Below, one piece after another: positions 3,018-56,641 of a DNA stretch of 64,000 nt. The position numbers and the translations under genes were made by a program. The notes beneath the pieces are model-generated. The model had not been told where the DNA came from and did no database searches. It worked only from the letters and a program-made list of their open reading frames with translations. Positions within the stretch are counted from its first letter, which is position 1; the number at the start of each line of letters is the position of its first letter. This stretch comes from a virus: the UHGV virus genome UHGV-0112899; one strand, given 5' to 3'.

Positions 3018-3593
3018 ATGAAGCAAAGCTATTGGGAGAAACAGACACAAAAAGCCCTGCAAAAACTGGCTGATCCGAAATGGCGGGAGGAACAAAGGGC
3101 AAAGCGTCTTCAGCAAGCTCAACGCCAGCAGCAGCGTGCGCGAGAAAAAGCCGCATCGCCTGAATATCGGCAAAAGAAAATTGAAAAAGCGAAGCAATAT
3201 GAACAGCGAAGAAAAGAGAAGGCCGCTTCTGCTCCTGTCAAAAAAACTCGCGCGTCACGCGGCCTGAAAGGCAGAACACTCACAGCAGATGAGCGCCGGA
3301 TACAAACTGCCATCGGTGCTCTCCCCTGCATTGCCTGCCATATGCACGGACAGCATAGCCCTGTGGTATCCCTGCACCACATCTTCGGGAGAACAGCAGA
3401 GAACGCGCATAAATACGTCCTCCCTTTGTGTAAATGGCACCATCAACACGCAGCGCCAGCAGAGATCCGCGAGCAATACCCCTGGTTGGTTCCTGTTCAT
3501 GCTGATGGAAAAATAGGCGGCAAAGCAGATTTCAGGCGGCACAATGCTGATGAAATGACGTTGTATCAGATGGTGACTGAATTAATAAATTAA
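3018..3593 (+). CDS. HNH-motif protein with basic N-terminus, Ref-like (DUF968-like)
   Basis: Lys/Arg/Gln-rich N-terminal half, then CIACHMHG...HHIFG...CKWHH Cys/His cluster; ATG at 3018. Confidence 0.45.
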   Translation: MKQSYWEKQTQKALQKLADPKWREEQRAKRLQQAQRQQQRAREKAASPEYRQKKIEKAKQYEQRRKEKAASAPVKKTRASRGLKGRTLTADERRIQTAIGALPCIACHMHGQHSPVVSLHHIFGRTAENAHKYVLPLCKWHHQHAAPAEIREQYPWLVPVHADGKIGGKADFRRHNADEMTLYQMVTELIN

Positions 3594-3607
3594 TTTTCTA
3601 ACATTTT
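3592..3607. promoter_or_regulatory. operator-like motif copy
   Basis: aattttctaacatttt matches the dispersed TGTTAGAAAAT core. Confidence 0.35.
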
Positions 3608-3924: not shown

Positions 3925-4092
3925 ATGACCGTTCGCTACCTCAACTTTCAAATCCAGAACATCACTGGCGGTTGCTATGACTGGTTTGTCACTCTCGGAA
4001 AAGAAGTGATCACCGGGAAGCTGGATGAAGTGAAAGCTAAAGCAATGGCCTACGCCTGCAAGCAAGCCCAAAAGAAGAAAAGAAAAGCATAA
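3925..4092 (+). CDS. small basic protein (55 aa)
   Basis: ATG preceded by GGGGGTG RBS; below the ORF-track length cutoff; terminator downstream. Confidence 0.3.
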   Translation: MTVRYLNFQIQNITGGCYDWFVTLGKEVITGKLDEVKAKAMAYACKQAQKKKRKA

Positions 4093-4197
4093 GAAAACAC
4101 ACAGTTGCGCCCTGGCATTATCGTGGGGTATATTTCTACGGCACCTTAGAAAAACGGGTGCCGGGATTGGAACCCCGGATAATGCAAAAGGCGACAC

Positions 4198-4220
4198 AGA
4201 CGCCGAAAGCGTCTTTTTTT
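4198..4220 (+). terminator. rho-independent terminator
   Basis: stem agacgc/gcgtct with 5-nt loop followed by T7 run. Confidence 0.6.
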
Positions 4221-4229
4221 GTGTCATGC

Positions 4230-4400
4230 CATCGCACAGCCATGCGTAGCGTTTAGCTCAGAGATCAATGGTAGTGCTGGCTGGGCTGCCGAAAGGCAGG
4301 CCGGTTCCCTTTTGCGCCGGTAGTTCCAACCCAGTCAGTGCTACCGCCATTGAGATTGGAACCTCACGCGGTAGCTCCTTAAATTAGCAAAAGGAGGCTG
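4230..4400 (+). ncRNA. candidate structured leader / antisense-type regulatory RNA (c4-like by position)
   Basis: long-range complementarity (caatggtagtgctgg vs cagtgctaccgccattg) plus ggctgcc hairpin directly upstream of the coupled small ORF and Rha gene. Confidence 0.25.
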
Positions 4401-4405
4401 CCAAT

Positions 4406-4621
4406 ATGGCTACTATCCCTACCCCAACTCATTCTGAATTTATCTGGCGTTTCTATTCCTGCCAAAAACACCTCTATATCTGCGTAATGGCTGCTACCGA
4501 AGCAGAGGCGCGCTCATACCTTCCCGAAGAACCCTGTATTTTTGCTGCTCGCTTCACTCTTGATGCGATGGAGATCCTCAATTACTGGAATCTGCCGATG
4601 AACTGCGTGGAGGTGCACTGA
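4406..4621 (+). CDS. small protein translationally coupled to antirepressor (icd-like by position)
   Basis: AGGAGG RBS; stop overlaps the Rha start (TGATG); paralog at 55481. Confidence 0.5.
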   Translation: MATIPTPTHSEFIWRFYSCQKHLYICVMAATEAEARSYLPEEPCIFAARFTLDAMEILNYWNLPMNCVEVH

Positions 4622-5562
4622 TGAATCTGTCCATCTCTCAAAAAGCGACAATGACCAGCATTGAGATCGCGGAACTGGTGGGAAGTCGTCACTCTGATGT
4701 TAAACGCAGCATCGAAAGACTTGTTGCTAAAGGAGTTATCCAACATACGCCATTGGCTACAGTTGAGAATAATCAATCACTTAGCCCTAATAAATACACA
4801 AAAGCCTATTTCTTCGAAGGCGAACAAGGCAAGCGCGATAGTATTATCGTCGTCGCGCAGCTCTCTCCGGAATTCACCGCCCGGCTGGTGGACCGCTGGC
4901 GCGAACTGGAGAATGTCAGGGGACCGTTAAAATCAAAAGCCGAAATCCTGGCTGAAATGGCGCAAATGCATCTTGAGCATGAACGCAGGATCAACGCCGT
5001 AAATGCCCAGGTAGCCGAGGTATCGGCACAAGTGTCCAGGGTCACCGAAACACTTGAGCAGATCAAGAAAGGCAATATTCCAGAAGGCTACATTGGCTAT
5101 CGCCAGTTGGCGGCAAAATGCGGCCTGACTGAAGCCAAATGCCGCAACCTGGTCAACGCTTACCGGATACCCACTGATACGCATGAGTTTTTAACTCCCG
5201 ACGGTTTGCTTGCGCGACGCTCCATTGTGGCCCTGGCCCCCTTCCGGAAAGCCTTTAAGCAGGTTATGTCGGAGGCAGAACCACGTAACAAACGCTGGTA
5301 TCATCCCAGGATGGGGCTATTTCAGGCCATTCACCATCCTGTGCCTGAAAGTCCAAAGGCAAACCTGTCGTTGCATACCGCCAGAGAGAAGATTAAAACA
5401 GGGTATGCAACCGTATGCCGTCGAGCATCCTGGCCTGAAAGTGTCTGGGTATGGCCCGAAAGAGGCTCACGGAAAAACTGGCGCACCATTCGCGACGGCA
5501 AGATCTGTGCGATTGATTTACAGCCAGAAGATGTAGCAGCGACCGACTGGATTGTTAGTTAA
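4621..5562 (+). CDS. Rha-family phage regulatory protein / antirepressor-like
   Basis: N-terminal SIEIAELVGSRHSDVKRSIERL (Rha-type); paralog at 55705; extra C-terminal domain present here. Confidence 0.65.
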   Translation: MNLSISQKATMTSIEIAELVGSRHSDVKRSIERLVAKGVIQHTPLATVENNQSLSPNKYTKAYFFEGEQGKRDSIIVVAQLSPEFTARLVDRWRELENVRGPLKSKAEILAEMAQMHLEHERRINAVNAQVAEVSAQVSRVTETLEQIKKGNIPEGYIGYRQLAAKCGLTEAKCRNLVNAYRIPTDTHEFLTPDGLLARRSIVALAPFRKAFKQVMSEAEPRNKRWYHPRMGLFQAIHHPVPESPKANLSLHTAREKIKTGYATVCRRASWPESVWVWPERGSRKNWRTIRDGKICAIDLQPEDVAATDWIVS

Positions 5563-5600
5563 TAGATTTGCCCCGGTCATGCCGGGGCTTTAACTACTAA

Positions 5601-14367: not shown

Positions 14368-14415
14368 GCAAAACTGTGTTAGATAATTGAGTTTTATTTT
14401 CTAACACAGTTTTGC
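14368..14415. promoter_or_regulatory. 48-bp near-perfect inverted repeat with operator core
   Basis: gcaaaactgtgttagataa ... ttttctaacacagttttgc between the spike gene and rdgC. Confidence 0.5.
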
Positions 14416-22453: not shown

Positions 22454-22531
22454 GTTCTAATGTTTTATGTTAGAAAATTAAGATTAAACCATACTAACAC
22501 AAGATTGTTAACGAAAATTATTTTTCTAATG
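22454..22531. promoter_or_regulatory. cluster of three operator-like motifs in a divergent promoter region
   Basis: gttctaatg (22454-22462), tgttagaaaat (22469-22479), ttttctaatg (22522-22531). Confidence 0.45.
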
Positions 22532-53902: not shown

Positions 53903-53917
53903 GCTAAAAGCTAGCTT

Positions 53918-53950
53918 AATTTTCTAACACAGTGTGTTTTTATACACTGT
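53918..53950. promoter_or_regulatory. operator-like motif with adjacent inverted repeat
   Basis: aattttctaacacagtgtg plus IR acagtgt/acactgt. Confidence 0.4.
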
Positions 53951-55064: not shown

Positions 55065-55121
55065 TGTTGCGATTGACTGTACAATAACCGTGCGGCGGGA
55101 ATTTCATCGCTCGAAAATGTA

Positions 55122-55221
55122 TGTTAGAAAATTAAATTGATGTTTCTAATCAAGAATGTATGATTTATATCGTCACTAAAAAACAGCATCTGATAAAAAT
55201 TCTGTTGATCTTTCTAATGTT
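55122..55221. promoter_or_regulatory. cluster of three operator-like motifs
   Basis: tgttagaaaattaa (55122-55135), tgtttctaatc (55141-55151), tttctaatg (55211-55219). Confidence 0.45.
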
Positions 55222-55239
55222 CAGGCTTATATTCATGCC

Positions 55240-55470
55240 GTCGTAGCAAATTCTGCGACCGGGTTTAGCAGCCTGAATGTTAGTGCGGACAACCGCAGAT
55301 ATCCGATATTGCGGTATTTTTGTGTCCGTAAAACCGCGTTACGCCCAAATTATGGTGGGGCGTGATGGGGAGGCTTCGGCCTGCTGGTTTCACTAACGCC
55401 AGTCTGCTAACCCCGTCACGTCCTGCCACCTGTTTAGCAGCGGGTAGCAGGTTGTTAAACCTGTTAGTGA
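55240..55470 (+). ncRNA. candidate structured leader / regulatory RNA of second immunity cassette
   Basis: multiple complementary segments (gtttagcagcc / cctgtttagcagcgggtagcagg) upstream of the coupled small ORF. Confidence 0.2.
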
Positions 55471-55480
55471 GGCCGTAACT

Positions 55481-55705
55481 ATGGTTAATGCCAATCCTTG
55501 CTCACGTCCAGAATTCATCTGGCGTTTTCACTCCCTGCAAAAACACTGCGATCACTTCGCAATTGCCGCAACTGAAAAAGAAGCCCGTTCTCTGATCCCT
55601 GATCAGTATGGCGTTCTCACTGGTCGTTTCTCTACTTCCCCACAACCAAACACCAATCCCTGGTATCGCAATATTACCAATCCCGGCATTGCGGAGGCTC
55701 ACTGA
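55481..55705 (+). CDS. small protein coupled to antirepressor (icd-like by position), paralog of 4406-4621
   Basis: shared EFIWRF...AATE.EARS motif with the first copy; TGATG overlap with the Rha gene. Confidence 0.5.
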   Translation: MVNANPCSRPEFIWRFHSLQKHCDHFAIAATEKEARSLIPDQYGVLTGRFSTSPQPNTNPWYRNITNPGIAEAH

Positions 55706-56412
55706 TGGATATCTGCATTCTCGAAAAGCCATCAATGACCAGCATTGAGATCGCGGAGCTGGTGGGAAAACGTCATGACAATGTGAAACGCACTATTGAG
55801 ACATTAGACAAAGGTGGCGTTATTGTTCGTCCTCAAATTGAGGTTTTCGAAAAAATCAATAACTTAGGACTACGACGTAGTGTTGAGGCTTACGTCTTCG
55901 AAGGCGAGCAAGGCAAGCGCGATAGCATTATCGTCGTCGCGCAGCTCTCTCCCGAATTCACCGCCCGGCTGGTGGACCGCTGGCGCGAACTGGAAGAACA
56001 AGTACGCCAGCCGTTGACCGAAATAGAGATGATCGCTGCAATGGCTGCAAATGCAGTTCAGCAGCAAAAGCGGCTTCATGTTGTTGAGTCAAAGGTTAGC
56101 CAGGTTGCTGAAACCGTCGAGCAGATCAAGAAGGGCAACATGCCAGAAGGTTACATTGGCTATCGTCAGTTAGCGGCGAAATGCGGCCTGACTGAAGCCA
56201 AATGCCGCAACCTGGTCAACGCTTACCGGATTCCCACAGATACGCATGAGTTTATGACGCCAGAGGTGGTATTGTCGCGTCGTACTATTGTGGCCTTATC
56301 TCCCTTCATGAATGCCTTTACCCTGATGATGTCGGAGGCTGAACACCGAGGAAAACGCTGGTATCACCCAAGGATGGGACAATTCCAGGTGATCGGTTGG
56401 GGAGGCGAGTGA
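55705..56412 (+). CDS. Rha-family phage regulatory protein / antirepressor-like, paralog of 4621-5562
   Basis: SIEIAELVGKRHDNVKRTIETL; ~105-bp and ~110-bp stretches near-identical to the first copy. Confidence 0.65.
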   Translation: MDICILEKPSMTSIEIAELVGKRHDNVKRTIETLDKGGVIVRPQIEVFEKINNLGLRRSVEAYVFEGEQGKRDSIIVVAQLSPEFTARLVDRWRELEEQVRQPLTEIEMIAAMAANAVQQQKRLHVVESKVSQVAETVEQIKKGNMPEGYIGYRQLAAKCGLTEAKCRNLVNAYRIPTDTHEFMTPEVVLSRRTIVALSPFMNAFTLMMSEAEHRGKRWYHPRMGQFQVIGWGGE

Positions 56413-56609
56413 TGGATATCATGCAGGCGGTAAAAAAAATCAGGGAAGGACAGGCTGAAGTGTGCCGCCGTAAAGCATGGAGTGTTGGTATATGGATCTG
56501 GCCTGATAATTGCTCTACTACCGGATGGTTTTGTATTAATGGATGCCAGATCCGGGAAGTCGATTTATCGACGGCGGATGCAGTCGGTAATGATTGGATC
56601 GTAACTTGA
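56412..56609 (+). CDS. small protein homologous to the C-terminal domain of the 4621-5562 product
   Basis: VCRRKAWSVGIWIWPD...DWIVT vs VCRRASWPESVWVWPE...DWIVS; TGATG coupling; GGAGG RBS. Confidence 0.5.
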   Translation: MDIMQAVKKIREGQAEVCRRKAWSVGIWIWPDNCSTTGWFCINGCQIREVDLSTADAVGNDWIVT

Positions 56610-56617
56610 AGTGTGAT

Positions 56618-56641
56618 GCCCCGGCCTGGCCGGGGCTTTTT
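56618..56641 (+). terminator. rho-independent terminator
   Basis: stem gccccgg/ccggggc followed by T-run. Confidence 0.55.

Follow-up and report, generated by a model that had tools for sequence, protein, structure and literature searches.

Two C4-type cassettes in a D6-like phage-plasmid

The stretch of 64,000 nucleotides (nt) from the viral genome UHGV-0112899 analysed here, referred to as the window, contains two cassettes that each join a gene for a C4-type antisense RNA to a small Icd-like open reading frame (ORF) and a gene of the Rha/Roi family. A scan of the whole window at the Rfam gathering thresholds gives four matches, every one of which lies inside these two cassettes, and no transfer RNA or transfer-messenger RNA genes are detected in it by ARAGORN. 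Sequence similarity assigns the source element to the D6-like (P1-related) phage-plasmids, or plasmid prophages, of E. coli. Escherichia phage D6 (NC_050154/MF356679) has 88-90% nucleotide identity across both cassette regions (2 kb each), which are syntenic with their positions in D6 and lie approximately 50 kb apart; the closest records are closed E. coli plasmids of about 90 kb, such as NZ_CP085065.1 (97.3% and 99.5% identity). In each of the two places, the D6 annotation has genes named 'Icd-like' and 'anti-repressor Ant', orf83 and orf82 being the equivalents of icd1 and ant1, and orf19, orf18 and orf17 those of icd2, ant2 and an ORF of 65 amino acids (aa); orf18 is labelled 'similar to HK97 Roi'. 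Both cassettes are also found together on eleven IMG/VR contigs, and the same plasmids recur in searches of PLSDB for cassette 1 and for cassette 2. The synteny with D6 and the closed plasmids carrying both places imply that two copies reside on one element, rather than being an artefact. All of the features described below are on the plus strand unless otherwise stated.

The first cassette (4105-5588) opens with a promoter-like site at 4105-4134 (-35 TTGCGC at 4105-4110, an 18-nt spacer and -10 TATATT at 4129-4134), the predicted start of which, at about 4141, is the first base of a gene for an IsrK-family small RNA (sRNA; 4141-4219; Rfam RF01394, 62.5 bits against a gathering threshold of 50). 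The arrangement of TTGCGC followed by TATATT or TATGCT is kept upstream of isrK in related loci. Folding and a terminator scan indicate that IsrK consists of two 5' hairpins, followed by a segment termed b1 (4184-4191, GCAAAAGG) just 3' of hairpin 2 and then a Rho-independent terminator (stem 4198-4214, then a U-run); the segment a1 (UUGGAAC, 4167-4173) occupies the loop of hairpin 2. A preliminary description of this DNA had reported a terminator at 4198-4220 and begun the cassette there. The terminator and the elements listed after it are present, but it forms the 3' end of IsrK, not that of an upstream protein gene, and the cassette begins further upstream.

Between isrK and the coding sequences lies the first C4 antisense RNA gene (4264-4351; RF01695, 76.7 bits against a threshold of 45, E = 3e-13), from which a mature RNA of about 4270-4348 would be produced by analogy with P1. 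The predicted fold has a 17-bp closing stem around two hairpins, which accounts for the long-range complementarity previously noticed in this region of approximately 170 nt. The loop of its hairpin 2 displays the segment b' (CCUUUUGC, 4308-4315), and a single-stranded junction displays a' (GUUCCAA, 4323-4329). Exact complements of both follow downstream, as a2 (UUGGAAC, 4356-4362) and b2 (GCAAAAGG, 4387-4394), the latter overlapping the Shine-Dalgarno sequence of icd1 (AAGGAGG, 4391-4397). This Shine-Dalgarno sequence is also found within a local hairpin of the folded leader in the segment 4365-4400 (GCUCCUU...AAGGAGGC), which could, as with 'structure A/B' of the Salmonella prophage Gifsy-1, provide an extra block in cis besides C4 pairing. 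The 71-aa Icd-like ORF icd1 (4406-4621) matches NCBIfam NF033153 (phage_ICD_like, E = 3.3e-13) and phrog_1426, and its TGA (4619-4621) overlaps the ATG (4621-4623) of ant1 (4621-5562) in the sequence TGATG. The product of ant1 is a 313-aa Rha/Roi-family protein and putative antirepressor; the small ORF overlapping a Rha-family gene, as originally proposed, is present. Direct reading of the sequence shows that the cassette ends in a GC-rich hairpin (GCCCCGG...CCGGGGC) and a short T-run (5570-5591); it has a weak T-tract and is not called by the terminator scan. In D6, a hypothetical protein on the minus strand, orf84 (4151-4450 of locus L001, approximately 4050-4350 of the window), extends across the isrK and first C4 genes; this ORF is probably spurious, having been called over RNA genes.

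The second cassette (55120-56636) opens with an 18-nt repeated motif resembling an operator (TATGTTAGAAAATTAAAT, 55120-55137), which abuts the -35 of a sigma-70-like promoter identified by the promoter scan (55137-55164, TTGATG-16-TATGAT), equivalent by position to P51a of P1. A second sigma-70-like promoter (TTGATC-17-TATATT) lies at 55205-55233; the -35 and -10 of P1 P51b align with it at 55205-55210 and 55228-55233. In this cassette the element upstream of C4 belongs to a different Rfam family, c4-a1b1 (RF03163; match at 55227-55279, 53.9 bits against 46.7), the whole element (55227-55323) comprising a hairpin, a1 (UUAGCAG, 55265-55271), b1 (GUUAGUGC, 55279-55286) and a terminator-like hairpin (55293-55314) followed by UAUUUUUGU. 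According to the predicted fold, this hairpin and U-run (55293-55323) form a weaker structure than the terminator of IsrK. The second C4 gene (55348-55433; RF01695, 70 bits, E = 1.4e-11) contains b' (UCACUAAC, 55390-55397) and a' (CUGCUAA, 55404-55410), and the mature RNA maps to 55354-55430 from the 77-nt c4 RNA of P1. It is followed by a2 (UUAGCAG, 55434-55440), by b2 (GUUAGUGA, 55463-55470), which overlaps the Shine-Dalgarno sequence GUGAGG of icd2, and by icd2 itself (55481-55705; 74 aa, NF033153 E = 3e-10), the ATG of which is at the position of that of P1 icd, 55481. The stop of icd2 overlaps the start of ant2 in a TGATG at 55703-55707, ant2 (55705-56412) encodes a 235-aa Rha/Roi-family protein that is again a putative antirepressor, and the ATG of the 65-aa ORF (56412-56609) overlaps the stop of ant2 in a further TGATG. 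A Rho-independent terminator with an 8-bp stem consisting entirely of GC pairs, followed by TTTTT, closes the cassette (56618-56641). The preliminary description had the architecture of the first cassette recur at 55240-56609: a second cassette does lie there, but 56412-56609 is a separate ORF.

The coordinates of a1, b1, a2, b2 and the mature RNA in cassette 2 could be mapped from the P1 record, which annotates Oc4/Op51, P51a, P51b, a1, b1, the 77-nt c4 RNA, a2, b2, icd and ant1/2. The leader aligns base for base with annotated P1 immI through P51b, a1, b1, c4, a2, b2 and icd, and on this alignment it is identified as the orthologue of the P1 immI leader. Relative to P1, the C4 RNA of cassette 2 has essentially one change, in the a' segment, which reads CUGCUAA where P1 has CUGUCAA, and a1 and a2 match the change. 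Both C4 genes in the window retain an acceptor-like stem and a 3' GCC(A)/ACC tail. The detection of C4 at both sites by covariance model, together with this alignment, bears out the resemblance to immI that had been suspected. The c4-a1b1 model has no match in cassette 1, where isrK sits in that place. As hairpin 2 of IsrK displays a1 exactly as does hairpin 2 of the c4-a1b1 model, IsrK can be equated with the a1/b1 element of this C4 variant, to which a terminator has been added.

Covariation and specificity of the antisense RNAs

In both cassettes, a' and b' are exact 7- and 8-nt complements of a1 and b1 upstream and of a2 and b2 downstream. In a sample of 80 IMG/VR loci encoding Icd1-like proteins, six specificity classes are found, and the a1/b1 of isrK, the a'/b' of C4 and the a2/b2 sites covary. 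The a sites and their a' partners take the forms UUGGAAC/GUUCCAA, UUGAGAC/GUCUCAA, UUGGCCU/AGGCCAA and UUGGUCU/AGACCAA, while the b sites and b' segments occur as GCAAAAGG/CCUUUUGC, GUCAAAGG/CCUUUGAC and GUCUAAGG/CCUUGGAC. Pairs were counted on the 31 distinct leaders of this sample. The helices formed by C4 with its downstream targets are paired in 100% of cells, with changes on both sides at four of the seven a'-a2 pairs and three of the eight b'-b2 pairs; those with the upstream element show the same number of double changes (4/7 for a1-a', 3/8 for b1-b') and are paired in 99.5% and 100% of cells, respectively. Within C4 itself, both sides have changed at 8 of the 17 pairs of the closing stem, 4 of the 5 of hairpin 1 and 1 of the 5 of hairpin 2, and 99.8% of cells are paired. 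In a control covering the full structure, pairing falls to 26-50% when the partners are shifted by 1-3 columns, and none of 500 shuffles matches the observed covariation.

The sole exception to the three-way covariation in the Icd1-type loci is one IMG/VR contig (2778261639_000014, locus L039), in which the isrK a1 (UUGAGAC) is mismatched to its own C4 a' and a2, which are of the UUGGAAC class; the locus is apparently a recombinant. The 24 Icd2-type loci exhibit the same three-way covariation in five classes, with an a site of UAGCAG or UGACAG, a b site of GUUAGUG, ACGAAUG, ACUUACG or GAUUGUG, and the exact complement in C4. Across the eleven contigs with two cassettes, the class at one locus combines freely with that at the other. 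That the C4 loops and both sets of target sites change together, in approximately 100 related loci and in both cassettes, indicates that the pairing between C4 and its targets is under selection.

The recognition sequences of the two C4 RNAs are unrelated: GUUCCAA and CCUUUUGC for that of cassette 1, CUGCUAA and UCACUAAC for that of cassette 2. Duplex energies calculated from the loop segments only, a version including the stem flanks having given noisy cross-energies, range from -8.5 to -13.1 kcal/mol for cognate pairs and from -0.8 to -6.2 kcal/mol between cassettes. With recognition sequences this dissimilar, neither C4 should silence the other cassette, and the two RNAs are predicted not to cross-react. 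The suggestion that the two antirepressor genes are independently controlled is therefore well supported at the RNA level, by sequence logic, and the promoter contexts of the two cassettes likewise differ.

The Icd and Rha/Roi proteins and a possibly Tad2-like domain

The proteins encoded by the two cassettes are paralogous, as the preliminary description stated, with 45% identity between Icd1 and Icd2 and 64% between Ant1 and Ant2; the Icd of P1 is 63% identical to Icd1 and 61% identical to Icd2. The leaders, by contrast, are only about 30-55% identical. Within ant1 and ant2 are blocks of 96-100% nucleotide identity (4811-4913 and 55895-55998; 5118-5157 and 56181-56220), which suggest gene conversion between old paralogues on one plasmid. 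The TGATG overlaps suggest that translation of each ant gene is coupled to that of its icd.

Ant1 and Ant2 both have an N-terminal Phage_pRha domain (Pfam PF09669; 33.6 and 36.8 bits, respectively, against a gathering threshold of 29.9) and membership of phrog_63, 'anti-repressor Ant' (E = 1e-57 for Ant1); a match to NCBIfam TIGR02681 is below its cut-off. By its Pfam matches (HTH_24 and Phage_pRha), the N-terminus is a DNA-binding domain of the winged-helix type; in Ant1 it is followed by a long helix, a conserved Roi-like middle region and a C-terminal 65-aa domain (aa 249-313). The AlphaFold2 model of full-length Ant1, with a mean predicted local distance difference test (pLDDT) score of 56 and values below 50 in the C-terminal half, is confident only in the winged helix and the long helix, and a sequence search of the Protein Data Bank (PDB) with an Ant profile returned nothing meaningful. 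Among phage records, D6 has the only full-length match by tblastn. It is their gene position and database naming that suggest an antirepressor role for these proteins.

The 65-aa ORF that follows ant2 is homologous to the C-terminal domain of Ant1 (window positions 5365-5559; BLASTP E = 1e-16), such that the same unit is a separate ORF in one cassette and a fused domain in the other. It belongs to phrog_7385. Its match to Pfam PF11195 (Tad2-like, DUF2829) is below the cut-off of 25 bits (16.9 bits, E = 0.0095), and those of its fused counterpart in Ant1 and of a relative, P0124 (23.9 bits), are also sub-threshold. A word-indexed search recovered three near-identical relatives, and an exhaustive HMMER search seven, of which two were useful. 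When an AlphaFold2 model of the ORF (pLDDT 77) is compared with the PDB by Foldseek, each of the 12 best matches is a solved Tad2 structure (probability 0.91-0.98, TM-score 0.55-0.60, with weak E-values of 0.08-0.3). No significant match to the DUF2829 protein of D6 was found with hhalign, nor anything meaningful by a PDB sequence search with the ORF. Two independent weak signals thus agree, and they provide a lead that the unit may have the Tad2-like fold of an anti-Thoeris sponge.

Promoters and an operator-like motif

The motif upstream of cassette 2, TATGTTAGAAAATTAAAT, has ten matches in the window at up to four mismatches, compared with 0.9 expected. These include sites at 2941/2957, upstream of a homologue of ref, at 3588, 14375/14391 and 22466, at 53914, upstream of repL, and at 55120. 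As TGTGTTAGAAAATnAA, the repeated motif occupies 2941-2974, 3588-3605, 14375-14408, 22466-22483, 53914-53931 and 55120-55137, in some cases as overlapping inverted pairs. Its location at the promoter of cassette 2 matches that of Oc4/Op51 at P51a in P1. Both ref and repL of P1 are under the control of the C1 repressor, and the presence of the motif at the promoters of their counterparts here leads us to infer that it is a candidate D6-type C1 operator, in the Op51 position. A second candidate sequence, 'TTGATNTTTCTAAT', was dropped, being no more frequent than expected by chance. No copy of the motif is found at the isrK promoter, the nearest being approximately 500 bp upstream, at 3588.

The corresponding repressor gene is not detected in the window by tblastn with the C1 and Coi proteins of RCS47 as queries; the c1 gene of D6 is in the part of its genome outside the span syntenic to the window.

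A model of control and its alternatives

The identity of the RNAs, the registers of their pairing, their covariation and orthogonality, the overlap of the coupled ORFs and the conservation of the whole are direct observations. We consider it likely that they reflect two homologous but non-interchangeable anti-immunity operons of the immI type, cassette 2 being responsive to C1 and cassette 1 driven by IsrK. In P1, C4 is processed from the operon leader and base-pairs with a2 and b2, preventing translation of icd and, with it, of the coupled downstream gene. By analogy, each operon here would give rise to one RNA carrying a decoy (a1, b1), C4, the real targets (a2, b2), icd and ant, from which C4 would be cut, as it is in P1 by RNase P. 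The RNA would then pair through its single-stranded a' and b' with a2 and b2, the latter covering the ribosome-binding site of icd; if icd is not translated, the product of the coupled Rha/Roi gene would not be made, and in P1 transcription also stops early.

The two operons would differ in what lifts the block. Cassette 2, with an operator-like site and a second promoter, would respond to loss of C1 or to infection, such that either an excess of C1-controlled transcription or entry into a cell free of C4 would lead to production of the effector. Cassette 1, without an operator at its own promoter, would instead be turned on by the self-terminated IsrK, which may compete with a2 and b2 for C4 and so relieve the block on icd1-ant1 in trans; the covariation of its a1 and b1 fits such competition. 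The cassette would then constitute a second entry to derepression, set by host physiology and possibly dependent on Hfq. In either case, the Rha/Roi proteins would presumably inactivate the C1 repressor.

The model for cassette 1 draws on the isrK-orf45-anrP locus of Gifsy-1 (Hershko-Shalev et al. 2016, PMC4825925). There, most isrK transcripts terminate and the read-through mRNA is translationally silent, while the short IsrK, supplied in trans, brings about a more than 100-fold increase in translation of both the downstream ORF and the antirepressor (PMC4825925). A processed RNA of about 80 nt, STnc1160, is located downstream of IsrK and before the small ORF and antirepressor, and compensatory mutations prove that IsrK pairs with the STnc1160 region (PMC4825925). 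IsrK of Gifsy-1 binds Hfq and rises in stationary phase and under stress, AnrP induces its own prophage and switches on antQ, and the authors liken IsrK, as a structural homologue, to SeqA, and STnc1160 to CI, of P4 (PMC4825925).

Several points weigh against this interpretation. The processing of the RNAs, the repression, the decoy action of IsrK and the inactivation of C1 would all be extrapolations from P1/P7 and Gifsy-1, and in Gifsy-1 a constitutive C4-like RNA failed to counteract the toxicity of IsrK (PMC4825925), from which it follows that a simple decoy model is perhaps incomplete. The isrK promoter is weak by consensus, falling below the threshold of the promoter scan, and cassette 1 could be partly under C1 by read-through from the site at 3588. 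The assignment of the operator follows from the motif, with c1 itself lying outside the window, and the P1 C1 operator consensus, ATTGCTCTAATAAATTT, has no match in the window at up to three mismatches. Finally, neither Ant1 nor Ant2 of the window has BLASTP similarity to Ant1 or KilA of P1 at E <= 0.01, and the named relatives found by tblastn are the Roi proteins of HK97, Stx and mEp phages and P42 of APSE, Roi being DNA-binding proteins.

The best surviving alternative, which is entirely possible although we think it somewhat less probable than not, is that the two C4 RNAs serve primarily to confer immunity in trans, each being made constitutively and silencing the matching ant operon of incoming related phage-plasmids, thereby dividing them into superinfection-immunity or compatibility groups. 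The heteroimmunity of P1 and P7 maps to immI, and its pattern is the one observed here: both cassettes are polymorphic exactly in the recognition nucleotides (six and five classes), with coadapted sites and classes that assort freely, and the a site is the only point at which cassette 2 departs from P1. This explanation is compatible with, and not exclusive of, that of two anti-immunity operons, but leaves the self-terminated form of IsrK and the retention of the decoys unexplained.

An unlikely alternative accepts control by C4 but makes of the Rha/Roi proteins DNA-binding regulators needed for lytic development, like Roi of HK022 and HK97, or effectors acting on other residents, such as the repressors of co-resident lambdoid prophages, in the way that AnrP of Gifsy-1 turns on antQ. 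The winged-helix N-terminus, the Roi proteins being the named relatives with D6 as the sole phage giving a full-length match, and the lack of similarity to P1 Ant1, the protein shown to bind C1, all favour it. So does the finding that the isrK-C4-icd leader is joined to an Ant1-like gene in RCS47 and JL22, which implies that the leader is a portable module with no fixed effector. Conversely, the Rha/Roi genes are found at the exact position of ant in the P1 operon with the same coupling to icd, AnrP of Gifsy-1 induces its prophage from the same genetic position, and the curators of PHROG and GenBank call the family anti-repressor, although this naming is itself inferred. The very improbable suggestion that the second copy is a recent redundant duplication, or an artefact of assembly or co-assembly, might be prompted by the near-identical blocks of ant1 and ant2, but was rejected on the divergence of the leaders, with their different upstream Rfam families (isrK and c4-a1b1), and on the synteny of both cassettes with D6, some 50 kb apart on closed plasmids of about 90 kb.

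Distribution and significance

Of 5,426 complete E. coli genomes, 86 carry cassette 1 at full length and 96 carry cassette 2; in PLSDB, the corresponding numbers of plasmids are 92 and 110. The carriers are largely the same plasmids of approximately 90 kb from E. coli, Salmonella and Shigella. D6-like plasmid prophages, of which the duplicated form is typical, are thus present in approximately 1.6-1.8% of complete E. coli genomes. The isrK-C4-icd leader alone occurs in 430 genomes, and Ant1-like proteins are encoded on hundreds of contigs of about 90 kb.

This distribution does not support the view that two copies on one element are unusual: the pair is present in D6, in about 100 plasmids and in 86-96 E. 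coli genomes, RCS47 and JL22 have a similar arrangement, and a second c4 and icd region was noted in the D6-like plasmid pYU39_89 in 2019 (PMC6799933). The layout is in substance already known, as a conserved and annotated feature of the plasmid family. In some records of Stx2 phages, 'C4 antisense RNA' and 'isrK' are already annotated next to each other, and IsrK and c4 have separate entries in a 2025 review. The literature searched, which did not include the D6 genome paper, yielded no account of IsrK as the terminated counterpart of an a1/b1 element of a C4 system in these plasmids, of the two locks being orthogonal, or of the polymorphism in the population with its three-way coadaptation.

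The use of these results is mainly in annotation, as public records name the proteins and usually omit both C4 genes and isrK. What they add is that the two locks are orthogonal, that both are polymorphic with coadapted decoy, antisense and target, and that the IsrK studied in Salmonella is apparently the a1/b1 of a C4 system. They also offer a framework for predicting heteroimmunity and cross-talk in induction among these widespread plasmids, which in some cases carry resistance genes. At its broadest, a tentative and, taken as a whole, rather improbable generalisation would be that D6-like and many P1-like phage-plasmids share a two-lock RNA immunity code, in which two orthogonal, polymorphic C4 locks (of at least six and at least five freely assorting classes) decide which related elements are able to silence the antirepressors of one another, IsrK, as an upstream target copy turned free-standing sRNA, sponges its own C4 and so ties induction to host physiology, and the Tad2-like domain, fused to one effector and coupled to the other, may add an anti-Thoeris or signal-binding function. 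No description of such a code for D6-like plasmids was found in the literature searched.

Comparison with known systems

Cassette 2 shares the order of parts with immI of P1 and P7, and its leader aligns throughout. The positioning of b2 over the ribosome-binding site of icd, and an icd stop overlapping the next start, are common to immI and the cassettes. The differences lie in the a site (UUGACAG in P1, UUAGCAG in cassette 2), in the consensus of the C1 operator, which is not that of the motif found here, and in the effector, the Ant1/Ant2 of P1 being replaced by a Rha/Roi-family protein without similarity to it. Furthermore, kilA and repL follow the effector in P1, whereas here the 65-aa, possibly Tad2-like ORF follows ant2 and repL is upstream. 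The D6 record annotates proteins at both cassettes, but no RNA genes.

The P1-like elements RCS47 and JL22 carry, besides a canonical immI, a second isrK-C4-icd-ant cassette between pacB and c1 (RCS47, 103.4-105.0 kb, locus L003; JL22, locus L004). Its isrK-C4 leader is 93-96% identical to that of cassette 1, but the effector, a protein of 371 aa, shares 54% identity with P1 Ant1 and is not a Rha/Roi protein, and the genomic position is different. Many P1-like phage-plasmids likewise have, between pacB and c1, a second isrK-C4-icd cassette that drives an Ant1-like gene. On P1-like contigs such as that of locus L043 (1165-1181), a P1-type C1 operator, TTTGCTCTAATAAATTG, is found just upstream of the isrK promoter, unlike in cassette 1.

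The isrK-orf45-anrP locus of Gifsy-1 is comparable to cassette 1 in that both open with an IsrK gene that has its own terminator, in that read-through would yield the mRNA for a small ORF coupled to an antirepressor-like gene, and in that an RNA of approximately 80 nt, processed and complementary to IsrK in Gifsy-1, occupies the place of C4. The likeness is drawn from the Rfam model only, as a distant blastn search of the phage collection did not recover the Gifsy-1 sequence. The orf45 of Gifsy-1 overlaps the part that yields the processed RNA and is not conserved in aa sequence; here C4 is followed by a separate, conserved Icd-like ORF. Gifsy-1 is also an integrated lambdoid prophage with antQ as a target, whereas the element considered here is a plasmid prophage.

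The seqA-CI-seqC region of P4 resembles the cassettes in deriving a small RNA from the leader of the operon that it controls, with complementary sites on both sides, but CI acts by terminating transcription of replication genes, not on an antirepressor. A small RNA processed from the leader and flanked by complementary sites is likewise found in immA of N15, where the CA RNA precedes icd and antA/B/C.

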